Of a stretch of 37,517 nucleotides of DNA, positions 3,480-36,138 are shown piece after piece. The position numbers and the translations under genes are program-made. The stretch lies in assembly GCA_946411895.1 (NCBI GenBank), contig CAMKFP010000003.1, forward strand, positions 1-37,517, read 5' to 3'. Numbering within the stretch: position 1 is the first letter of the stretch; every line of letters begins with the position of its first letter. The DNA comes from an uncultured Bacillales bacterium (GTDB lineage: Bacteria > Bacillota_I > Bacilli_A > RFN20 > CAG-826). A model generated the notes under the pieces. It was not told where the DNA came from, did not search any database, and saw only the letters and a list, made by a program, of their open reading frames with translations.

Positions 3480-5124
3480 ACTTATTGAATGAAGATTTTA
3501 ATGAACAAGTTCTATTGAAGATCAAATGTTCTTTTGTGGATTCTTTATCAGTGCAGAAGTATCCGTTTCTAATGAATTGGAATCTATCGAGTGGTTTAGT
3601 GTCTATTAATGAGGCTTCGACATAGCCTTCGACTTTCTCCCATGAATTTGGATTAAGTCTTTCTAAGAAAGATAATCCTTTAGTTTCTTCTGTTTCGTCA
3701 AAGACAAGAGGTTCATATAAGTTAAATGTTGCTGGTAAAGCGGTTGTGGCTTCAACATAGTGAATCGTGCCATTAGGCTTTCTTCCTTCAAACCCGCTTC
3801 CAGATTTAGTCTCTGGATCATAGCTACAGTGAAGTTCAACGATCTTGCCGTTTTCGTCTTTCAGGACGCTATTACATTTAATGAAGTAGGCGTGCATGAG
3901 TCTTACTTCATCACCTAAAGATAATCTCTTCCATTTGCGGTTTGGCTTTTCTTCAATGAAGTCTTCCTCTTCAATATAGAGATATTTGCCAAAGGCAATT
4001 TGACGAGTTCCAAGCTCTTCATTTTCCATATTGTTAGAGGCTTCAACGTATTCGATTTGACCTTCTGGATAGTTATCAATAACTACTTTTAATGGATGAA
4101 GGACCGCCATTGGACGGGTGGCTTTCATCTTTTGTTCTTCTCTAAGGAAGTAATCTAGATTATCCGCATCAGTCGTGGAGTTAATTCTCGATAAACCAGT
4201 ATAGAGGATGAAGTTCTTAATCGCTTCAGCGGTAAAGCCTTTACGTTTTAGACCCACTAAGGTTGGCATTCTGGGATCATCATATCCAGTGACATAGCCA
4301 CCTTCAACGAGTTGACGAAGATATCTTTTAGACATCACGGTGTTAGTGATGTTAAGTCTACCCCATTCATATTGATGTGGGACGTGTTCCATCTCACACT
4401 TTTCCACAAACCAGTCATATAAGACTCTATGGTTATCATATTCTAAAGAACAAAGGGAATGTGTCACTCCTTCAAAAGCATCTTGAAGTGGATGGGCGAA
4501 GTCATACATTGGATAGATGCACCATTTATCACCTTGACGGTGGTGACTGACGTGAAGGATACGGTACATGACAGGGTCACGCATATTGATGTTTGGAGAA
4601 GACATATCGATCTTCGCTCTTAAGGTCTTTTCTCCGTTTGCGTACTTGCCTGCTCTCATTTCTTCAAAGAGCTTTAAGTTTTCTTCAACGCTTCTATTTC
4701 TACATGGAGATTCTCTTCCTGGTTCAGTGAGAGTTCCGCGGTATTCAGTCATTTCTTCTGGAGACAAATCATCAACATAAGCAAGGCCTTTTTTAATTAA
4801 AAGAATGGCTTTTTCATAGGTTTTTTCAAAATAATCAGAACCAAAGAAGATGTTCTTGGGTTCATAGCCTAACCACTTTAAATCATCAATAATGGCGTTG
4901 ACATATTCAGCACCTTCATTGACTGGGTTAGTGTCATCGAATCTTAAATTGGTATAGCCACCAAAGCATTTAGCAAGTTCAAAGTCATTGACAATCGCTC
5001 TTGCGTGACCGATGTGTAAATAGGCATTTGGTTCAGGTGGAAAACGAGTCACGATTTGTTTGACTCGACCTTCTTTAAGGTCTTTTTCCATGATTGTTTT
5101 AATAAAGTTGTTGATTTCTTCCAT
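3478..5124 (-). CDS. glnS: Glutamine--tRNA ligase
   Basis: TRFPPEPNAYLHIGH, LRFDDTNP, YPMYDF, THSLCSLEY, VMSKR, DDPRMPTL and C-terminal FQFIRNGYF. ATG at 5124 follows a GAGG SD. Confidence 0.96.
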   Translation of the reverse strand: MEEINNFIKTIMEKDLKEGRVKQIVTRFPPEPNAYLHIGHARAIVNDFELAKCFGGYTNLRFDDTNPVNEGAEYVNAIIDDLKWLGYEPKNIFFGSDYFEKTYEKAILLIKKGLAYVDDLSPEEMTEYRGTLTEPGRESPCRNRSVEENLKLFEEMRAGKYANGEKTLRAKIDMSSPNINMRDPVMYRILHVSHHRQGDKWCIYPMYDFAHPLQDAFEGVTHSLCSLEYDNHRVLYDWFVEKCEMEHVPHQYEWGRLNITNTVMSKRYLRQLVEGGYVTGYDDPRMPTLVGLKRKGFTAEAIKNFILYTGLSRINSTTDADNLDYFLREEQKMKATRPMAVLHPLKVVIDNYPEGQIEYVEASNNMENEELGTRQIAFGKYLYIEEEDFIEEKPNRKWKRLSLGDEVRLMHAYFIKCNSVLKDENGKIVELHCSYDPETKSGSGFEGRKPNGTIHYVEATTALPATFNLYEPLVFDETEETKGLSFLERLNPNSWEKVEGYVEASLIDTKPLDRFQFIRNGYFCTDKESTKEHLIFNRTCSLKSSFNK

Positions 5125-7467: not shown

Positions 7468-9564
7468 ATGGGCAAATTGAGATTTGTTATAACAAATACA
7501 TTACTTTGGGTGTCTTTAATTTTCACCTGCTTCTTTTTAGAAGCTTTCCCGTGTTATTTAGAAGCCCCATATAACGAAGTGGGAGGATTCCAAAATTCCA
7601 CTTTCTTTGTGCTCACTCTCATTTTGCTTTTGCTCTATCTCTTCTATTTCGTCTCCGAAAGGCGACATAACAAAGTTAGAGGAGATTTCTTATTACTCGC
7701 TTTATTCACCTCTTTGATGGTGACAATGAGCGTGGCAATTTGGATTAATCCAAATTATATCGAATTTGTGAACCAAACTTCGCTTAATGTTCATAGTGTG
7801 ACTTTCACATTTATGGATAAACTAAGATATAACATTCAAGCCTTCTTTGCTTTAACAGGCCTATACCTTTTGATGTTCTTCTACTCAAGAAATAAACTCA
7901 GGGCAAACAGCATCAACTGGTTAGCGTATGCCTTCATTTTTGTTTGTATTATCATTATCGGTTTATCGTTCTATCTTGATAGAGCAGCTTATTACGATAT
8001 CTTCGTTAAAGGTAACAGTGAGAAAACTATCACCTCCATTTGCGGTAATCCAAATAATATTGGTTTAGCTATGCTACTAACCATATTGGCGTGCATTATT
8101 ATCAATGGTAAGAAGTTCAAATGGTGGACATTTATTATTATCGGCGCGGCTGAAGTCTTTAATATGCTTAGCTTCTGCGCGACAACGATATTTATCTCAT
8201 TTGTTCTTTTACCAATCTACATGATTTATCTCATCTGCTACGCCTTTAAAAAAGGCTTAGCCTCTGGAACAGTAACAACGATTTTCTTCATTTTCTTCTC
8301 TTTAGGTCTTGTTTGCTTAATGCACTATGCCTCAATTGATAAACTTGGCAATGTCTCGAAAGCCTATCACGCAGTCTTCAATTATCTGAAAGATAAAGAC
8401 TTTGATACATTCACTAATAGAACTATTATTTGGAAGATTGTGGTTTCTTTACTTAATGAGAACCCATTATATTGGCTCTTTGGTAGAGGCTATAACATTG
8501 GTAATCTCATCCTTGGAAAAGGCTTACAGTGCTATTATGACGCGACTGAATCTGTTTATACATGTCACTCTGGATTTATCCAAACCATCTTCAATAGTGG
8601 TCTTATTGGCTTTGGCTTCGCCACTGCTGGATTTATCTATTTCATTGTGGCTTGTGTCCATCACCTCAAAAAGAAGAGAATTCGTTTCGTTTTTATATAT
8701 GTCCTATGCGTCGTCACATATTTAGCGCATAATGCGGTTAACGCAGCGAGATTCTTCGATGTTACCACAACCAATTTGATCGCTATGCTTCTTTTCTATC
8801 TCCCACCTGTCGTGGCTTATAAACAAGAGAAACATCCATCTCTGATGGAAGAAGTCTATCATTCCTCCAATTTCCAAAAGAGAGTGTCCGACAAAAACTT
8901 CACAGGTGCGATTGCCTGTGCTTGCGTTTGCTTGCTTATGACATGCTTGTTTGTGCTATGCACACCTTTTGCTTATGAGGGTGCATATGAGAATGCGAGC
9001 TTAAAGAACGTCGCCATTACGGTATTAGAGTATGTCGCAATCTCTGCGGTTTTCTTACCATATTTGCTCACTTTGTTCTATAGAAAATCTAAGACTTGGC
9101 ACTTCATCTTAAGAGTAGCTTTGCTATTCTTAATTGGTGGAGGAATTCTATTCATAGTGGCGTATTTTGGACCAAAGAATGGTTTGAGTGTTGAAACGCT
9201 CAATTGGTTGTTACCTGTTATTTATGCTGGCTACCTATTTGTTGTTCTGTTTGATTATGTCATTTTGTGCCGTGGCAAGTTCAGACACTGGATCAAATTT
9301 ACCCTTAGAGGTTTAGTGGTGGTGCCTAACTTTGTTCCACTTGCAACTGCGTTACTTGTTGGTCTACCAATCGTTTTATACATCCAAATGAATACCGCTG
9401 AAGTGTCGTTATTAACACTCTTTTCTTTAGTGGCCCTCTTCATCTTGGGATTTACGATGTTATACTTCCTCTTCCCATTCAAGAGTCAAAAAGAAATATT
9501 AAACGAGTTTAATAGGACTAAATATGCTAGACTTAAATACTCCTTGATTAAGGAGGAATACTAA
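7468..9564 (+). CDS. Polytopic membrane protein with an O-antigen ligase/Wzy-like domain and a C-terminal multi-TM extension
   Basis: Many hydrophobic helices; GNPNxxG, FTNRxxIW, LFGRGY and HSGFIQxxxxxGLIG match the O-antigen ligase pattern. Confidence 0.7.
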   Translation: MGKLRFVITNTLLWVSLIFTCFFLEAFPCYLEAPYNEVGGFQNSTFFVLTLILLLLYLFYFVSERRHNKVRGDFLLLALFTSLMVTMSVAIWINPNYIEFVNQTSLNVHSVTFTFMDKLRYNIQAFFALTGLYLLMFFYSRNKLRANSINWLAYAFIFVCIIIIGLSFYLDRAAYYDIFVKGNSEKTITSICGNPNNIGLAMLLTILACIIINGKKFKWWTFIIIGAAEVFNMLSFCATTIFISFVLLPIYMIYLICYAFKKGLASGTVTTIFFIFFSLGLVCLMHYASIDKLGNVSKAYHAVFNYLKDKDFDTFTNRTIIWKIVVSLLNENPLYWLFGRGYNIGNLILGKGLQCYYDATESVYTCHSGFIQTIFNSGLIGFGFATAGFIYFIVACVHHLKKKRIRFVFIYVLCVVTYLAHNAVNAARFFDVTTTNLIAMLLFYLPPVVAYKQEKHPSLMEEVYHSSNFQKRVSDKNFTGAIACACVCLLMTCLFVLCTPFAYEGAYENASLKNVAITVLEYVAISAVFLPYLLTLFYRKSKTWHFILRVALLFLIGGGILFIVAYFGPKNGLSVETLNWLLPVIYAGYLFVVLFDYVILCRGKFRHWIKFTLRGLVVVPNFVPLATALLVGLPIVLYIQMNTAEVSLLTLFSLVALFILGFTMLYFLFPFKSQKEILNEFNRTKYARLKYSLIKEEY

Positions 9565-19598: not shown

Positions 19599-19616
19599 TT
19601 AAAACTTAGATTTCAA

Positions 19617-19702
19617 TATACCAAAGACAGTAACGGACGATAGTGTCTTAATAATGTTACCGAGGCGTAAGAAATAAATTTCTGCCCGTATATTGGAGCC
19701 TC
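19617..19702 (+). promoter_or_regulatory. L10 leader (rplJ autoregulatory RNA)
   Basis: CCAAAGACAGTAAC...TTAA...GTTACCGAGG...CCTC follows the L10 leader layout, between rplA and rplJ. Confidence 0.8.
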
Positions 19703-19737
19703 AAACAAACACAAAATTGAAAAGGAGGTCAAAGAAT

Positions 19738-27900: not shown

Positions 27901-28841
27901 TTAAAGTTGGTGAAGCAGTTGGTATTATGGCGGCTCAATCCATTGGTGAACCAGGTACTCAATTAACCATGAGAACCTTCCACACAGGCGGCGTTGCTGG
28001 CTCTGATATTACTCAAGGTTTACCTCGTGTTCAGGAATTATTTGAAGCAAGAACTCCAAAGGGCGAAGCTTTAATCTCTGAAATCCCAGGTAAAGTTACC
28101 AAGATTGAAGAAAAGAATGGTTGTTACTTAGTAACAGTCAAAAACGATCTTGAAGAAAAGACTTATACAACTGCTTTCGGTGCTCGTTTAAGAGTCAAGA
28201 AGGGCGACACCGTCAAGAGTGGTGGTAAGATCACCGAAGGTGCTATTTCACCTAAGAAGTTACTTGAAGTCGCTGACATCACTTCTGTAGAGAACTACAT
28301 CTTAAAAGAAGTAAGAAAAGTCTATAGCGCCCAAGATATCGCTATTAGTGATAAGCACATCGAGGTTATCGTTAGACAAATGCTTAGAAAAGTGTTCGTT
28401 ATCGACGCTGGTGATACCGATATGATCTCTGGAACAAGAGTGAATATCAACACATTCACCGCGAAGAACAATCAAGCTTTGCTTGAAGGCAAAAAACCTG
28501 CCGTCTTCTCTCCACTTGTCTTAGGTATTACCAAGGCTGCTCTTGAAACAGAAAGCTTCTTATCTGCGGCTTCCTTCCAAGAAACCACCCGTGTCCTTAC
28601 CGATGCGGCCATTAAAGGAAAGACTGACTACTTACATGGCTTAAAAGAAAACGTCATTACTGGTCACCTTATCCCAGCCGGTCGTGGTTTATTAACCGAA
28701 GAGGAAGAAGATGCTATCTTAGATGGCTTCTCTGTTGAAGGCACGATGAAAGAAGTCTCCGACCGTTACGTCGAAGAGCATGACCGTGTCATCAGCGAGA
28801 TTCAAGATAAGATCAAAGCGGCTGAGGAAACTCATAAATAA
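24915..28841 (+). CDS. rpoC: RNA polymerase beta' subunit
   Basis: N-terminal Zn finger, NADFDGDQM active site, GARKG..DTA.KTA bridge helix, [15 protein letters not shown]. Confidence 0.99.
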
Positions 28842-28880: not shown

Positions 28881-28927
28881 GTTATATTTTGTCTTTTTAT
28901 ATGTATTACAATACAATATATATCAAC

Positions 28928-30466
28928 ATGAAATACAAGGTTGTCTCATTGTTATTACTTTCTAGCTTAGCGCTTACTGGCTGCTCTAATTCTATTTCCT
29001 TAGAATTTAGGCCCTATAAGCCTTTTAACTACGACGGAGAGGCAATCACTCAAAACTCGATAGAAGTCTCCTCTAAAGCGGGTTTAGAGGGCAATATAGT
29101 TAAAACTATCCAAGATATTTCCTATCGTCATCTAAATAATAGAACCCTCGCTAATAGTGAAGGCGAATTTAAGATGCTTGTTCTTCCGATTTATTTTGAT
29201 GCAAACGCCAATTCGCCTCATCACGATGATGAAGACGGAAGAGCGCGTGAAGAGAAATACACCATTTATCTAGAGAATGCTTTCTTTGGTGAAGCGAAGA
29301 TGACAGATTATGAATCCGTAGCCTCTTATTATAATAAGTCTAGCTATGGCAAACTTAAGATCACTGGAGAAGTCGCTCCATGGTTTGGTTATAGTTCCAA
29401 GGTCAGCCCCACCGCGAAGAAATCCGGCGCGGAAGATATCGTTTTAGCGGCCCTTAGCCACGCTAAGACTGAAATGGGTGACTCCTATAACCAATACGAT
29501 AGAGATAATGATGGCTATGCTGACGATGTATTTGTCATCTATGACTATCCATATGAGAAGGACAATAGTAGTGATACAATCTTCTGGGCTTTCACTTCTT
29601 CCTTTGGAAGCAATAAAGGACAAGCGGCACACGGCAATGCCTATTCTTGGGCTAGTAGTGAATTTATGCATCCAAGCGGCAACCGCGTGGAAACATATAC
29701 TTATATCCATGAAACCGGTCACCTTCTTGGTTTAGTGGACTACTATAACACCTCCACAAGCGACAAGACATATCAACCCACTGGTATGTTTGATATGATG
29801 GACTCTAATTTAGGTGATCATAGTGCTTTCTCTAAATATTCCCTTAACTGGGTGAAACCAACAGTCATCACCGAGCCAGGAACATATAAACTCAAATCAC
29901 TCACCAAAGGTGAACAGTTCTTCTTAATTCCTAAAGAGAACTGGAATGAGACAGTTTATGATGAATATATTCTTATAGAATATTTTGTTCCAGAGGGACT
30001 TAATGATTCTCATAATTTCCCTAACTATAAGTACTACGATAAAGATGGGAAAGAGCAAATCTTCTCCTATCCAACAAAATACGGCATTAAAGTCTATCAC
30101 GTCGATGCGAGATTATTCTATTACAGTAGTGGCTCTACAACTATCTCTGGTACACCAATAGGATTCATTACCGAACCAGGTATTGAAGAGAGACTAACTG
30201 AATCCGTCAGTGTCTATTATGCCTATCAAAACGAAGGCTCTAATCAAAACGAGATTCTCTATCACCTTTTAGAAAGTAGTGGAGAGAATTCCTTCTATGA
30301 AGGGAAAGGAGCTTCTAATGAGACGCTATTCATGATGGGAGATGACTTTGGCTTCACTAAATATAAAGACTTCACCTTCCATGATGGAACTAAGTGTCCA
30401 CTTAAGTTCAGAATTGATATGCTCACTCTTGAGGGAGCCTCTATTACATTTAAAGCAGATAATTAA
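28928..30466 (+). CDS. Lipoprotein, M6-family (immune inhibitor A-like) zinc metalloprotease
   Basis: Lipobox LTGC; ESVASYYNKSSYGKL, DRDNDGYAD, HETGHLLGLVDYY, FDMMD, HSAFSK..LNW, EYILIEY. Confidence 0.88.
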   Translation: MKYKVVSLLLLSSLALTGCSNSISLEFRPYKPFNYDGEAITQNSIEVSSKAGLEGNIVKTIQDISYRHLNNRTLANSEGEFKMLVLPIYFDANANSPHHDDEDGRAREEKYTIYLENAFFGEAKMTDYESVASYYNKSSYGKLKITGEVAPWFGYSSKVSPTAKKSGAEDIVLAALSHAKTEMGDSYNQYDRDNDGYADDVFVIYDYPYEKDNSSDTIFWAFTSSFGSNKGQAAHGNAYSWASSEFMHPSGNRVETYTYIHETGHLLGLVDYYNTSTSDKTYQPTGMFDMMDSNLGDHSAFSKYSLNWVKPTVITEPGTYKLKSLTKGEQFFLIPKENWNETVYDEYILIEYFVPEGLNDSHNFPNYKYYDKDGKEQIFSYPTKYGIKVYHVDARLFYYSSGSTTISGTPIGFITEPGIEERLTESVSVYYAYQNEGSNQNEILYHLLESSGENSFYEGKGASNETLFMMGDDFGFTKYKDFTFHDGTKCPLKFRIDMLTLEGASITFKADN

Positions 30467-30500
30467 ACAAAAACTCACGTTTCCGTGAGTTTTTTGTGTT
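30466..30500. terminator. Bidirectional terminator
   Basis: AAAAACTCACG-TTTC-CGTGAGTTTTT. Confidence 0.8.
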
Positions 30501-30510
30501 TTCAATAGTT

Positions 30511-31053
30511 CTATTGTTGATAAGAAATTGTAAAATCCAATTTCTCAGTCATAACTCGATTATCTGAGCTACTTGCTTTAGTGACGTAGAAAGCTGATCT
30601 AAGTGTGCCATCATTCTTATCATATTTTTTATTACACTCAATTTTCATATTCGTATTCCCATCCATAGTGCTATCTAATGAAATAAAATAGGATAGATCA
30701 TCATAGAAGGTGAAAAAACTTAAATATTCTTCCTCATATTTTTCTAGATTTAGTGTTTTCGCGTTTTCCCGTAAATCAGTTTCGATGGTATCTGGGACTC
30801 TTGTATTTGATTGGATAACCATCCAATCATGAGTTGTTTCGTTTTTCTTATAAACGGTTGTGTCACTCGTTTTGTTTCCCTCATAATCGATATATGACCA
30901 TTTAACAGTGGCTTTTTGATAATCAACTACTTCAACTTTACTTGCTAAAGATGACCACTCTTGCAAACTAATTTCGGTTTTAGTCTTCTTGCTAGTGCAC
31001 CCATTAACAACAAATAAACCGATGAATAAAAGCGATAGTGTTATTTTTCTCAT
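30511..31053 (-). CDS. Hypothetical lipoprotein
   Basis: Basic N-terminus, hydrophobic core, lipobox-like VNGC. Confidence 0.75.
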   Translation of the reverse strand: MRKITLSLLFIGLFVVNGCTSKKTKTEISLQEWSSLASKVEVVDYQKATVKWSYIDYEGNKTSDTTVYKKNETTHDWMVIQSNTRVPDTIETDLRENAKTLNLEKYEEEYLSFFTFYDDLSYFISLDSTMDGNTNMKIECNKKYDKNDGTLRSAFYVTKASSSDNRVMTEKLDFTISYQQ

Positions 31054-31093
31054 ATCAATACTAGTACCTTCAAGTTAATTATATCTTTAGATA

Positions 31094-31130
31094 AAAGAAA
31101 ACCCAAGACTAGGTCCTGGGTTTTTGTTTT
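31094..31130 (-). terminator. Terminator between the two minus-strand lipoproteins
   Basis: AAAACCCAAGAC-TAG-GTCCTGGGTTTT with A/T flanks. Confidence 0.6.
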
Positions 31131-31143
31131 GACTTACTTTTAA

Positions 31144-31791
31144 TTATTTTGAATAAGAGTAGGAAACACTCATACTTGATTTGGTTTCGCCATTAGCATA
31201 ATTATATTGAGCCATCGCTTCAGCATATTCATCTGGGATACCAGAAATGGTCACTGTGGAACTTTGTTCCATCTTTGTTAAAATACCTGTTTTTTGATCA
31301 AACTTATAAGACATTGAGGCATCTTTGGTTTCCATAGTGATTGTGAATAGAGGTGATTCTTCATTTGGGTATGGCATGGTTTCTGTTTCAGCTTCTGTTG
31401 CAACAGCTTTGATTGATAAATCACTGTAGCATGTGACTTCGTAGTCCTCTGGGATGGCGCTAACATTTAAATCTTGAGCATTCATTCCAAGCATGCCACC
31501 AACCATAATTATGACACCGTATTCTTCCATTGTTTGTGGTCCTGTTTCGCCTTCTGCTAAGTCCCAACCAGAAAGATCTGGTTCTTCTTCGTCTACAACA
31601 TATGCCCAGTTCCAGGAATAGTTTTTGCCACTATAGCTGACTTTGGTTGTACACTTTGTGTATTCAACTGGTTTAACAGCAGCGGCTTTTTCAGTCCATT
31701 CTTCGGCAGTGATTTCTTTTTTGGCAGATCCGCCACAAGCGGTTAAACCTAATAAAGAAACGGCTAATAATGTTCCAACTTTAAAATTCAT
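31144..31791 (-). CDS. Hypothetical lipoprotein
   Basis: Lipobox LTAC, AAGGAG SD. Confidence 0.8.
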   Translation of the reverse strand: MNFKVGTLLAVSLLGLTACGGSAKKEITAEEWTEKAAAVKPVEYTKCTTKVSYSGKNYSWNWAYVVDEEEPDLSGWDLAEGETGPQTMEEYGVIIMVGGMLGMNAQDLNVSAIPEDYEVTCYSDLSIKAVATEAETETMPYPNEESPLFTITMETKDASMSYKFDQKTGILTKMEQSSTVTISGIPDEYAEAMAQYNYANGETKSSMSVSYSYSK

Positions 31792-31939
31792 AATTTTTCT
31801 CCTTTTAAAACATTAATGATTTGCCTAGAGTTACAACACGTAAACTCTTTGCGTTACTAAATAGATTTTATAGCAAGCCATATTTTTTGCAAACAAAAAA
31901 TGCTTATATGTGTCATTAACGAACAAAAAAGTATGCATA

Positions 31940-31960
31940 TATGACATTTAAATTGTCATA
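31940..31960. promoter_or_regulatory. Operator-like palindrome in the divergent promoter region
   Basis: TATGACA-TTTAAAT-TGTCATA. Confidence 0.45.
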
Positions 31961-32009
31961 GAGGTCATATTTCTTGTAGACTATTGCTATATCAATCGAG
32001 GTGATGGTT

Positions 32010-33131
32010 ATGAAAAACTATGTTTCTAAGATTATATGTTTATTATCCGCGGGTGTCCTTTTAGGAGCCTGTAATAACTCTGGTGGTTCTAAAGCCAAAG
32101 AGCAATATTTTAAATATGTCGCGGAAGCTTTAGAAGATCCTGAACCAGAAGAGATATATGCGACATTTTATGACGCAAAAGAAAACCGTTTTTATATGGA
32201 ACTATGTTATGACCAACACTCTGGCTTAGCATTAAAAGTCGTGGAGTATGATTTATGGGACTTCATTTTCTATCCTAATCAAGGAGAGATAAGTGAAGAT
32301 TATGAATCTATTTCTTTAACTTATTCCGCTTATGAAGAAAGCGATTTGTTTGCTCGTGGAACCTATGTTTTATCGCATTCTCTTAAGAATGGTAAAGATA
32401 CATTTGCTTTAGATGCAGCGGGGACTAGTTACTCCTTAACATTAAGTAAAAAAGAAAATCCTCACTATATCGATAAAGATCTTGTTGGGGAATTTGAATA
32501 TCAAAGCGAGGGTAACGTCTTATTCTCTATGAGTGTTGATGTTGGCGAAAAAAGTGATGGTTATCCTGTCTCTATTTCTTTAGAAGAACAAGATTTATCA
32601 TTCACTACTTCAAATATCGAAAATAGTGATGTCACCACAACTTTTAATATCAAAGGGACAGAAGATGGAACATACGTTAAAAGAGTAAACGACGCTTCAT
32701 TTACTTATAACGAAGGCTATGAGTTATATCAATTAACTATTGGTGAAGAAACATATTCTCTCACTAAAACCAGAGGTTACGATGATGAAGATGAAGAGAC
32801 TAACTATTTCTTCCTTAACGCTGGATTAGTCAAATTTACTTGTGATGATTTTGAAGCGAGATTAACAACTAGTGGTGGAGATATGGTGCAGCTCATCTTT
32901 AAAGAATTAGTGGAACAAGGTAACCCTAACTTCTGGTGCTGGTTTAAAAAAGGTGAGGATGATTCCATTACTAACGCTCAATCGATCACTAATCCAAATA
33001 ATAAAGTGTTTGTTAATGTGACAACATATTCATTTAAACATCGTGTGGAAAATGAAGCAGATGTTGTTGATTTATATTTTGATGGTGTATTAACTTATCC
33101 AAACCTCACAATCGTGGAAGTTAAGGAATAA
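32010..33131 (+). CDS. Hypothetical acidic lipoprotein
   Basis: Lipobox LGAC, GAGGTG SD; beta-rich acidic sequence. Confidence 0.8.
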   Translation: MKNYVSKIICLLSAGVLLGACNNSGGSKAKEQYFKYVAEALEDPEPEEIYATFYDAKENRFYMELCYDQHSGLALKVVEYDLWDFIFYPNQGEISEDYESISLTYSAYEESDLFARGTYVLSHSLKNGKDTFALDAAGTSYSLTLSKKENPHYIDKDLVGEFEYQSEGNVLFSMSVDVGEKSDGYPVSISLEEQDLSFTTSNIENSDVTTTFNIKGTEDGTYVKRVNDASFTYNEGYELYQLTIGEETYSLTKTRGYDDEDEETNYFFLNAGLVKFTCDDFEARLTTSGGDMVQLIFKELVEQGNPNFWCWFKKGEDDSITNAQSITNPNNKVFVNVTTYSFKHRVENEADVVDLYFDGVLTYPNLTIVEVKE

Positions 33132-33139
33132 TTTCATAT

Positions 33140-34684
33140 ATGAAAAAGATTATTTTATTACCAATTTTATTAACCTTATTAAGTGGATGTTCTGGTGGAT
33201 CATCCACCTTTAAAATTGAATCTTTTTATACTGATTTAGAAGCTCGTAATTATGTCACTTATGATGGGGAGCTAAAACAGATTTTTTATGATGAAAATAT
33301 GATTATGTTTAATGCCCCTAATCAAGTTAATTATGGAGTGGTTAAAATGTCTCAAGGTATCTTTGAAATACACGAGACTAGTGATGGAAGTTATGAGACG
33401 CATGGGATGCTCACACCTAATGTAGAACTTGATATTCTTGATGGCTGTCATAATTTTCATAATATTGCCTATATTGCAAAGTCTCAATGGACATATGACT
33501 CCGCGAATAAAGAATATAATCTAAAGATTAGTAAGAAGAATTATAGCACTCTTTCCTATACTGGATATTTCTCTAATGACGATTATAATTCGATAAAAAA
33601 TATCTCTTTAAAAAGAATAAAAACTCATGAATATCAAGTGGATGTTATTTATAAAGATGGAGTGAGCAAAGAAAATTACTCTATTACTTTGAATAATTAT
33701 AAGAAAAACACCAATAGTGAGCTTAAGGAGTTTATCACTAATACTGTAGTGAGTCCACAAACTGACTGGAACGATTATCAAAAGTCCGCTTTAGAGGTGT
33801 ATGGCCTTAATGATATACCATTTTTATCTAGCTATACGATTGGCTTTTTCATGTATTTTCAGCGTATCGCGACTTATTCTAGTGGTGGATATGCTTGTAT
33901 AGTCTATGACTATATGAGTAGCCAAGAAAAAGAAGAAGATATCGCTAAAGAATTAGAAGATCTTCATTTTCTTCCTGATGGAGAGAAAAAATATTATAAA
34001 CCTTCGAGTGATATTCCTGGGCTTAATCTTAATGTAGAGTACGCTTTTATATCTTACGAAGAACTCGAATATATGGCGGAGCGTGGAGAAATTTCTCCAG
34101 GCAATTTACTTGCTTATCCATATGGATATATGCAGCTATTATTCGCTTATTCATTTGGAGAAATAGAAATTAGCTTAGCGGATTTAAACACCGTTTTGCT
34201 AGATAAGATGGCTTTATCTCCTTTAGATAACACAGTGAGCTTCATTAATAAAATCACCACAGTTGACTATAAAGATAGCGTTAACGAAGCGGCGATGAAT
34301 GATGAAGAATATCTAGAGATGTTTGAGGAGTTAGGTTTAGAACCTGGTCCATTATATGAAGAACTTGCCTCTTATTATTTATATATAGATTTAGAAAATG
34401 ATGCGGTTAGTTATATTGATAATTACCGCGAATCAATTAGAAATAGTGGTTATATCTATTCTAATAATGGTGCCGCCTCTGATAACGATTCTTTATCGAT
34501 AAAAGATATGTCCTCAAAGATGGTGGAGTACTATAAAGTTTCAAAAGATGGCTTACCTGAATATACGATTGATATATATTTATATGATTCAAGTAGTCCA
34601 GATAATCTAAATTATGACGGAGTGGTGGAAATAGTCTTATCCCGTTATACGGAACTTGGATTAGCCTTCTTCTTCGCTGAATAA
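33140..34684 (+). CDS. Hypothetical acidic lipoprotein
   Basis: MKKIILL... signal peptide, lipobox LSGC, Gly/Ser linker. Confidence 0.8.
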   Translation: MKKIILLPILLTLLSGCSGGSSTFKIESFYTDLEARNYVTYDGELKQIFYDENMIMFNAPNQVNYGVVKMSQGIFEIHETSDGSYETHGMLTPNVELDILDGCHNFHNIAYIAKSQWTYDSANKEYNLKISKKNYSTLSYTGYFSNDDYNSIKNISLKRIKTHEYQVDVIYKDGVSKENYSITLNNYKKNTNSELKEFITNTVVSPQTDWNDYQKSALEVYGLNDIPFLSSYTIGFFMYFQRIATYSSGGYACIVYDYMSSQEKEEDIAKELEDLHFLPDGEKKYYKPSSDIPGLNLNVEYAFISYEELEYMAERGEISPGNLLAYPYGYMQLLFAYSFGEIEISLADLNTVLLDKMALSPLDNTVSFINKITTVDYKDSVNEAAMNDEEYLEMFEELGLEPGPLYEELASYYLYIDLENDAVSYIDNYRESIRNSGYIYSNNGAASDNDSLSIKDMSSKMVEYYKVSKDGLPEYTIDIYLYDSSSPDNLNYDGVVEIVLSRYTELGLAFFFAE

Positions 34685-34689
34685 AAGTT

Positions 34690-34722
34690 AAAAGCCTCGA
34701 AATTGAATGGGGCTTTTACTTT
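34690..34722 (+). terminator. Terminator of the lipoprotein pair
   Basis: AAAAGCCTC...GGGGCTTTT followed by Ts. Confidence 0.6.
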
Positions 34723-34786
34723 GTAAATTAGAAATTAATAACTCACATATTCGCAAAAGTTGTTAGCTGTTTTATATAAATAGCGA

Positions 34787-34815
34787 TTGCTTTGAATATA
34801 GTCCAATTTTATATT
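34787..34815 (+). promoter_or_regulatory. Promoter of the CptI-like RNA
   Basis: TTGCTT (34787-34792), 17 nt spacer, TATATT (34810-34815). A short hairpin GTAGC-AAA-GCTAC starts at the predicted +1. Confidence 0.6.
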
Positions 34816-34835
34816 ATTTGTGTAGCAAAGCTACA

Positions 34836-34925
34836 ATGTTTACCGCTGACTAGCATGCGGTATATAAGTGGCTAGGTCGTAAGTATCCCGCTGACTAGCA
34901 TGCGGAATATAAATAGCTAGGTCGA
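34836..34925 (+). ncRNA. cptI: CptI-like type III antitoxin RNA: two tandem 45-nt pseudoknot repeats
   Basis: Repeats 34836-34880 and 34881-34925 are 38/45 identical. Each folds as an H-type pseudoknot (CCGC/GCGG stem; loop CTAGC pairs with downstream GCTAG). Length, layout and sequence match CptI of Eubacterium rectale as recalled. Confidence 0.85.
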
Positions 34926-34934
34926 AGAAGAAAT

Positions 34935-34966
34935 GCTCCTATACTTCAAAGTTTAGGAGCTTTTTT
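34935..34966 (+). terminator. Terminator following the antitoxin repeats
   Basis: GCTCCTATACT-TCAA-AGTTTAGGAGC followed by six Ts. Confidence 0.85.
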
Positions 34967-35077
34967 ATGTTAATAGTACAAAGGTTGGAAAAATCTATAG
35001 TAGAAAATGGGGGAAAATATTTAGTAGAAACCACCGAAAAACAAATTAAAGAAGCATTGATATCATTGCTTAATTGA
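34967..35077 (+). CDS. 36-codon ORF at the position where cptN would start (microprotein or toxin remnant)
   Basis: MLIVQRLEKSIVENGGKYLVETTEKQIKEALISLLN*; AGGAG inside the terminator stem, 7 nt before the ATG. Confidence 0.3.
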   Translation: MLIVQRLEKSIVENGGKYLVETTEKQIKEALISLLN

Positions 35078-35095
35078 AATTATTTTATTTTTTTC

Positions 35096-35124
35096 TTGCA
35101 CTAATTATTTTATTTCCATATTAT
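35096..35124 (+). promoter_or_regulatory. str operon (rpsL) promoter
   Basis: TTGCAC, 17 nt spacer, TATTAT, with an AT-rich upstream region. Confidence 0.75.
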
Positions 35125-35232
35125 ATATGAGCGAGTAAGCAAACCCTTCGGGGTCGTTTTTTAAGAAGAGAATACGATACACCCGGAATAGTTGTTACTC
35201 AAATGAAATAGTTAAGAAAAAGGAGCAATTAT

Positions 35233-35652
35233 ATGCCAACAATTAACCAATTAGTTCGTGAAGGCCGTCAAAACAAGACATTCAAGTCTAAGTCTCCTGC
35301 TTTAGGTTCCAGATGGAATTCTTTAAAGAAAAAACAAAAGGAACAAGCTGGTCCACAAAAACGTGGTGTTTGCACCCGTGTCGGTACCATGACTCCTAAG
35401 AAACCTAACTCTGCGTTACGTAAATATGCCCGTGTTAGATTATCAAACGGATTTGAAGTTACTGCCTATATCGGTGGTGAAGGTCACAACTTACAAGAAC
35501 ACTCCACAGTCGTTATTAGAGGTGGAAGAGTGAAAGATTTACCTGGTGTGAGATATCACATCGTGAGAGGTAGATTAGATTGCGCGGGTATCGAAGCCCG
35601 TAGACAAGGCCGTAGTTTATACGGCACAAAGAAGCCAAAAGCTTCTGAATAA
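35233..35652 (+). CDS. rpsL: 30S ribosomal protein S12
   Basis: [33 protein letters not shown]; carries the Firmicutes-type N-terminal insertion. Confidence 0.99.
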
Positions 35653-35670
35653 GATAGGAGGTAGATCATT

Positions 35671-36138
35671 ATGCGTAAAGGAAATGCGACAAAACGCGAT
35701 GTGTTACCAGATCCAATTTACAATAGTAAATTAGTCACACGCTTAATCAACAAAATTATGCTTGATGGTAAAAAGGGAACCGCTGAAAAGATTCTCTATT
35801 CTGCCTTCAACAAAATTGAAGCAAAGACTGGTAAACCTGCCATGGATGTCTTCGCTACTGCGATCAATAACATCATGCCAGAAGTCGAGCTCAAGATGAA
35901 AAGAATGGGTGGTGCGAACTATCAAGTTCCTACCGAAGTGAGCCCAGAAAGAAAAGTCACTTTAGGTCTCAGATGGTTAGTTAACTATTCTAGACTCAGA
36001 AACGAAAAGACCATGGAAGACCGTTTAGCTAGCGAAATTATCGACGCTGCTAACGGAACAGGTGCTTCTGTCAAGAAGAAAGAAGATACCCACAAAATGG
36101 CCGAAGCCAACAAGGCTTACGCACATTATCGTTGGTAG
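35671..36138 (+). CDS. rpsG: 30S ribosomal protein S7
   Basis: [34 protein letters not shown]. Confidence 0.99.

Follow-up and report, generated by a model that had tools for sequence, protein, structure and literature searches.

A diverged CptI-type antitoxin RNA array without a toxin gene upstream of rpsL in an uncultured Bacillales bacterium: a probable relic of a cptIN module

The window analysed here, a stretch of 37,517 nt from an uncultured Bacillales bacterium (contig CAMKFP010000003.1 of assembly GCA_946411895.1), carries upstream of rpsL a genuine, diverged CptI antitoxin RNA array that has no toxin gene. This cassette is probably the antitoxin half of a CptIN type III toxin–antitoxin module whose toxin gene was lost or deleted, and the observations on which this view is founded are the RNA family of the repeats, their intact pseudoknot core, the absence of CptN from both the window and its assembly, and the frequency of the toxin-less state at CptI loci elsewhere.

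Repeat units, terminator and pseudoknot of the cassette

The elements of the cassette and of its immediate surroundings are the following (positions in the window).

34690..34722, plus strand: hairpin with T-rich tail that terminates the preceding lipoprotein gene (its stop codon is at 34684) and forms the left edge of the variable segment
34729..35087, plus strand: strain-variable segment holding the entire cassette and the 36-aa ORF (from the X3 contig and the alignment of relatives)
34787..34815, plus strand: putative promoter, TTGCTT (34787–34792), 17-nt spacer, TATATT (34810–34815), read from the sequence
34836..34880, plus strand: CptI-family unit 1, 45 nt (model R1, 54.2 bits, E 2.7e-16)
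34881..34925, plus strand: CptI-family unit 2, 45 nt (model R1, 48.4 bits, E 2.6e-14)
34935..34966, plus strand: intrinsic-terminator-like hairpin and T6 run (from the fold and from its position relative to 80 cptIN loci)
34967..35077, plus strand: 36-aa ORF opening directly 3' of the T-run (ATG at 34967)
35088..35232, plus strand: rpsL promoter and leader, conserved in relatives and other strains; right edge of the variable segment
35233..35652, plus strand: rpsL, followed by rpsG and fusA

The two tandem units, which can be read directly from the sequence upstream of rpsL, are identical at 38 of 45 positions, and their length of 45 nt and number of two agree with the CptI tandem repeats of 40–48 nt in 1.9–3.4 copies given in Table 2 of PMC3401426. 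TRF at score 30 returned no array at the cassette, since a pair of copies with 84% identity stays below that score. The hairpin that follows the units has its arms at 34935–34941 and 34954–34960, forming a 7-bp outer stem with further inner pairs, runs into T6 at 34961–34966, and is present in both the MFE and the centroid fold; our terminator scan, which allows loops of up to 8 nt, overlooked it because its own is longer. When 80 cptIN loci were compared, the position of this hairpin was found to be that of their attenuating terminator. Support for the promoter that an earlier note on this DNA had placed ahead of the repeats is divided, in that both hexamers are present, but promoter-like sites in this AT-rich stretch occur at chance frequency (4, against 3.2 ± 2.1 in shuffles), and the TTGCTT/TATATT pair scores under the threshold of the promoter scan, which offers a pair at 34808–34837 instead.

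The units were assigned with a covariance model, R1, made from the 38 distinct CptI units that precede bona fide cptN genes in a set of 81 loci, this set being composed of 80 cptN loci fetched from genome contigs via 40 CptN homologues, plus locus L002, which is described below. Two units are present in 69 of these loci, three in two, one in five and none in the remaining five, which are mostly cut by contig ends. On the window, R1 found the two units with the scores listed above, the next best match reaching 15.7 bits, and a search of the assembly gave no further copies. As canonical CptI units score 70–77 bits on the same model, the units of the window must be counted as divergent within the family. 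At the cassette, Rfam matched no type III antitoxin family, at either the gathering or the E≤10 threshold. The Rfam matches that did appear in this region are terminator look-alikes and were discarded.

The likeness to the CptIN system of Eubacterium rectale (PDB 4RMO; PMC4627078) extends from the layout, i.e. two units of 45 nt with a terminator directly after them, to the RNA fold. Each unit can form an H-type pseudoknot with stems 7–11/22–26 and 15–19/36–40, the pairs of stems 1 and 2 being 5/5 and 5/5 in unit 1, and 4/5 and 5/5 in unit 2. With this two-stem pseudoknot 99% of the cells pair, compared with 93.8 ± 0.6% in shuffles (0 of 500 as high) and with at most 45% when the partners are slid, and changes on both sides were found at 5 pairs compared with 1.5 in shuffles. 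The single-base L1 (G13) is also shared, as is the A-rich L2 loop (27–35) with A29 and U30 that has been described for CptI RNA (PMC4627078), which reads AUAUAAGUG in unit 1 and AUAUAAAUA in unit 2.

The earlier note had compared the units with an E. rectale repeat, and that repeat corresponds to the commonest unit upstream of cptN (44 occurrences), which fits the E. rectale repeat in the primers of PMC4627078; the compensatory pairs that it had proposed from this comparison (10:23, 16:39, 17:38 and 18:37) are borne out in our alignment of units. At 16:39 the window units have U-A where 38 others have C-G, at 18:37 they have G-C where 37 others have A-U, and at 19:36 they have C-G where 38 others have U-G. 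Since one window unit is a copy of the other, these changes represent one lineage, with two double changes and one single change. Stem 2 accordingly reads CUAGC/GCUAG in the window, whereas the E. rectale-type stem is CCGAU/GUCGG or CCAAU/GUUGG, and the promoter and terminator sequences of the window are not alignable with canonical cptIN ones. The earlier reading of two tandem repeats, each able to form a pseudoknot, followed by a terminator and belonging to the CptI family, is thus upheld in all of these parts. In most of the E. rectale-type loci (L009–L088) the two units of one array also differ from each other by compensatory pairs, 10:23 being A-U or G-C and 17:38 being G-C as opposed to A-U or G-U, indicating copies that are kept distinct and yet are both foldable.

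Further departures from the E. rectale system are found in the window at the outer junctions, which are not GA|AAG, and in the altered 5' tails of the units. According to PMC4627078, cleavage takes place after A45, a single repeat was given 5'-GA and 3'-AAG flanks so that it could be processed, and the toxin holds the RNA by its single-stranded tails at both ends, the 5' tail forming the larger protein interface. Of the three window junctions, the 5' outer one is CA|AUG, the middle one GU|AAG and the 3' outer one GA|AGA, whereas the cptIN loci that we listed have A|AAGU-type junctions at all three positions. Neither CA|AUG nor GA|AGA occurs among these listed loci; the U at position 45 of the middle junction is also found in nine of the 38 canonical units. 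In addition, each window unit carries one or two changes in its 5' tail (A2U in unit 1; U5A and A7C in unit 2). We regard the deviant outer junctions and the tail changes as signs of decay, which favour the loss of the toxin, and they count against an RNA retained for its own sake in that they depart from conserved processing and contact sequences. On the opposite side, the pseudoknot is complete in both units, A29 and U30 are in place in the A-rich loop and the terminator is a good one, and in this respect the units look better preserved than the degenerate single-unit relics L123, L127 and L128 considered below. This preservation speaks against a relic, although the young relics L124–L126 are equally intact, so that intactness cannot separate function from recent loss.

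Absence of the toxin gene and the fate of cptIN modules elsewhere

No cptN gene (NF047359) lies directly downstream of the repeats in the window, and the absence of a toxin gene, which the earlier note had claimed for this locus, extends to the assembly (964,687 bases in 98 contigs, 79.5% complete), where the CptIN, TenpIN and ToxN profiles NF047359, NF047358 and PF13958 gave zero matches. A weak match to a CptN of genome G371 (E 0.038; contig 82, G000) proved to be a small conserved ORF in the alaS operon, downstream of alaS and the gene that follows it. At the locus itself, the CptN protein profile reached −0.8 bits at best in the six frames of 34900–35240, and a cptN DNA profile (nhmmer) gave zero matches over the same interval. 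This DNA profile does detect toxin stubs in two other loci, L124 (68.8 bits) and L126 (14.9 bits). A stub that would prove a former toxin is therefore missing from the window locus, and this argues against a relic, as does the incompleteness of the assembly, which leaves room for a toxin elsewhere in the genome.

The 36-aa ORF starts exactly at the position of cptN, 7 nt after a GGAG in the 3' arm of the terminator, and could on that account be a truncated or novel small toxin that is still paired with the repeats. Blower et al. (PMC3401426) list cptIN loci with toxins of 45–66 aa, and the ORF has by eye a weak likeness to CptN residues 106–120, which the profile also picks. However, its score on the CptN profile is −1.5 to 0.6 bits, with 194 of 2000 shuffles as high; it shows no match at the DNA level; BLASTP against two CptN proteins of G371, a genome of the same order, gave nothing significant; and searches of Pfam, NCBIfam and PDB returned nothing. 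One metagenome contig (X1, below) also skips 34964–35050, although this is weak evidence. By the profile score, nhmmer and BLASTP it is not a detectable remnant of CptN; the ORF is doubtful, and probably not a gene, and we judge a small toxin at this position to be extremely unlikely. A homologue search with the CptN of G371 for a toxin on a 2303-nt contig also produced nothing usable, the best homologues being E. rectale-type proteins that are 63% identical.

Arrays of this kind were also found elsewhere. We searched with R1 and NF047359 151 genomes of the Lachnospiraceae-type family around G167, which holds L062, and recovered 13 R1 loci plus one contig-end fragment. An intact CptN adjoins seven of these 13 loci, and the other six are without it, as follows.

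L123, L125: promoter, one unit and terminator, then unrelated genes; no toxin trace
L124: two units and terminator; CptN only at about residues 100–145
L126: two units and terminator; 31-aa stub of CptN fragments
L127, L128: one degenerate unit and terminator

Genomes of the same family also contain cptN frames interrupted by stop codons. The toxin-less state accounted for about half of the CptI loci in the two samples in which we searched for the RNA first, and such arrays are thus a common fate of cptIN, so that the layout of the window is not very unusual. The earlier note had taken it to be so, and on this point we differ from it, given the six of 13 loci without an intact cptN and a precedent in print, PMC3401426 having listed cptIN loci with full repeats and terminators but toxin fragments of only 45–101 aa. 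The window, these published truncated loci and L123–L128, in all of which a complete or partial set of repeats and a terminator are kept while the toxin is shortened or gone, probably lie on the same decay path. The published loci retain 45–101 aa of their toxin, whereas the window retains none, like L123 and L125; the cases listed in that paper all keep toxin remnants because they were found through those remnants. More generally, surveys of type III systems start from the toxin, so toxin-less arrays go uncounted. A toxin-less share of about one half fits the decay order that would be expected, with the toxin lost first, and searching for the RNA first offers an easy means of following cptIN modules through their life cycle.

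In the order to which the window belongs, R1 arrays were found in one of 150 other genomes, G371, and CptN above the cut-off in three of 150; in its own family, arrays were found in one of 150 genomes, G021. G371, a genome of 1.5 Mb, has tandem cptIN modules at L144 (G371:C1:62345-65390), with arrays that combine units of differing stem-2 sequences. Both modules contain an intact CptN (159 and 133 bits on NF047359), in contrast with the window, and the CptN of G371 has 60% identity to an E. rectale-type CptN. The stem 2 of the window, CUAGC/GCUAG, recurs in units of these intact modules, and over a core of 33 nt, 31 positions are identical between unit 2 of the window and unit 3 of module A, although most of the G371 units differ from those of the window in the L2 loop. 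The presence of this stem in intact modules indicates that the variant of the window comes from a cptIN sub-lineage present in its order. A pattern of the window's stem-2 type had 0 matches in metagenome contigs and 0 in viral contigs. G371 also holds two arrays, L140 and L141, without CptN within 891 and 1000 nt downstream respectively, and a genome of the same order that holds both intact modules and toxin-less arrays adds to the case for loss, together with the frequency of such arrays elsewhere, some of them still with toxin stubs, and with the published truncated loci.

Loss of the toxin would fit into the following scheme. In an intact module, about two 45-nt repeats are transcribed from the promoter and the terminator passes only part of the transcripts into cptN; the CptN RNase then cleaves the repeat RNA after A45 to give single pseudoknots, by which CptN is bound and silenced. 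In the window, cptN would have been deleted without recognisable trace, leaving the repeats and the terminator. The toxin would thus once have stood at this locus, and the array would now be dispensable and starting to drift.

CptI-like RNAs on mobile DNA and a possible role in trans

The principal alternative to a relic is a retained stand-alone antitoxin that would neutralize in trans the CptN of plasmids or phages, the benefit being anti-addiction, or immunity to killing of the abortive-infection type, at no cost of an own toxin. The earlier note had offered both readings, and its relic stands as the favoured one, on the strength of the frequent toxin-less arrays and stubs, the deviant outer junctions and the strain-variable segment in which the cassette lies; its trans-acting antitoxin, as judged from the sequences compared here, is possible but unlikely. 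In its favour are the two intact pseudoknot cores and the array's own terminator, and the evidence that cptIN modules and CptI-like RNAs travel on mobile DNA.

Among 40 relatives searched at the DNA level, one meaningful match was found, on contig G021:C123. At this locus, L002 (G021:C123:6300-8285), two 45-nt repeats and a terminator lie next to a MobV/Mob_Pre relaxase, and the contig breaks off within an ORF that encodes a CptN (E 7e-62 to the CptN chain of PDB 4RMO; 161 bits on NF047359). Its CptN is 98% identical to one (L009) at the end of a 146-kb Lachnospiraceae MAG contig, and either the element is promiscuous or the short contig has been mis-binned with G021. Three IMG/VR contigs from one metagenome (L130, L131 and L132) likewise carry complete cptIN, with two units each and a CptN of 204 bits. 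The relaxase beside cptIN and these three contigs show modules that are mobile.

Seven other IMG/VR viral contigs carry one solitary CptI-like unit each, with R1 scores of 38.6–65.1 bits, as follows.

L133:736-780: solitary unit
L134:3820-3864: solitary unit
L135:4066-4110: solitary unit
L136:14652-14696: solitary unit
L137:1198-1242, minus strand: solitary unit
L138:~8633-8678, minus strand: solitary unit
L139:~4777-4820, minus strand: solitary unit

No CptN was found in the 900 nt downstream of these units (190 nt in the case of L136). Five of the seven lie inside a tRNA gene cluster and on the same strand as it, and the unit of L136 abuts the 3' end of tRNA-Asn. The units retain the pseudoknot core, with a 5' tail unlike the canonical one, and their neighbours are phage genes for replication and nucleotide metabolism, with serine integrases in L139. 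By analogy with pseudo-ToxI, the toxin-less repeat RNA of phage PhiTE that is a proven trans-acting decoy for ToxN (PMC3475682), these solitary units may serve the phages as decoys for CptN and mature along with the tRNAs. Both they and the proven decoy lend some weight to a retained antitoxin. The window cassette and PhiTE pseudo-ToxI have in common that an antitoxin-like repeat RNA is encoded without a toxin; they differ in that pseudo-ToxI is phage-borne, of the ToxI family and experimentally functional (PMC3475682), whereas the cassette is chromosomal and of the CptI family, with any function putative.

Several observations weigh against a retained antitoxin in addition to the outer junctions and 5' tails discussed above. 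The putative promoter is matched at chance level, and CptI RNAs were reported in PMC4627078 to give no cross-protection between CptN proteins of 35–44% identity. The genus of the window has no known partner toxin with matching units. Moreover, the toxin stubs in L124 and L126 indicate that comparable toxin-less arrays arise by simple decay. The fuller form of this proposal, that the array is both maintained and expressed, free of any toxin, and would protect the cell against plasmid or phage CptN RNases, we consider rather unlikely from what the sequence suggests. Were it true, the array would act from the chromosome as an RNA 'vaccine' against addiction and abortive-infection modules of type III, mirroring the solitary CptI-like units found in tRNA clusters of large phages. 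If orphan arrays or the single phage units were functional decoys, mimicry of antitoxin RNA would extend past the one known case.

Genomic context and strain variation of the locus

The relic that we favour, and its rivals, can also be considered from the surroundings of the cassette. In 24 relatives the gene upstream of rpsL ends 38–615 nt before it, most often 130–260 nt, and in many of them it is a long plus-strand ORF; ahead of rpsL, their sequences can be aligned with the window no further upstream than about 35082. The window contains ~6.2 kb extra between rpoC (which ends at 28841) and rpsL when compared with these relatives. A lineage-specific stretch of ~6 kb at 28889–34684 encodes an M6-like peptidase, two small minus-strand ORFs and two lipoprotein-like ORFs, and the genes of the insert between rpoC and rpsL contain no mobile-element domains. 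Homologues of the 514-aa lipoprotein-like ORF were absent from 150 genomes of the family and from the metagenome contigs, and because the upstream lipoprotein has no homologues there the locus is not comparable gene by gene with that of relatives.

Contigs from public metagenome runs of sheep and goat gut were compared with the window over 34000–35800. Coverage by run X1 extends over 34476–34963 with six differences (~99% identity) and that by run X2 over 34482–34958 with 24 differences (~95% identity), and both include the cassette. Its presence in these two other studies indicates that the cassette has persisted across some strain divergence, which speaks for a retained antitoxin and against a relic. 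In contrast, an X3 contig (record 17) aligns with 34000–34728 and with 35088–35184 and has 1427 other letters in between. This replacement of 34729–35087 indicates a segment that is strain-variable and replaceable in the population, and the position of the cassette inside such a segment favours a relic.

The same contigs bear on the proposal that a toxin has been missed, whether through an assembly collapse, a chimeric join at the T-run, a toxin present in only part of the population, or a contig left unbinned. At the T-run of the terminator the contigs of X1 (34963) and of X2 (34958) break off, X1 then running on for 9 letters unlike the window, and X3 has a much longer insert at this site; in addition, the MAG is in 98 contigs and 79.5% complete. 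Against this, one X1 contig joins 34963 to 35051 and so gives a junction that is toxin-less and even shorter than the window, although it is weak evidence, with a side of 21 letters, and the three toxin profiles had no match in the assembly. We know of no type III system in which the toxin stands apart from its repeats. A missed toxin thus appears quite improbable to us. Cover over 34976–35036 is none in X1 and X2 and almost none in X3, a hole of a kind that proves nothing, and the contigs of an RNA run (X6) lie on rpsL and rpsG only, with none on the cassette or the lipoprotein gene, making it uninformative on expression of the cassette.

Taken by itself, the window gains from this analysis a modest annotation, that of a degenerate cptIN locus at a strain-variable site ahead of rpsL. 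The window also contains an L10 leader at 19603–19703 (Rfam RF00557, 47.6 bits) ahead of rplJ, and a tRNA at 1231–1303, both of which are ordinary.
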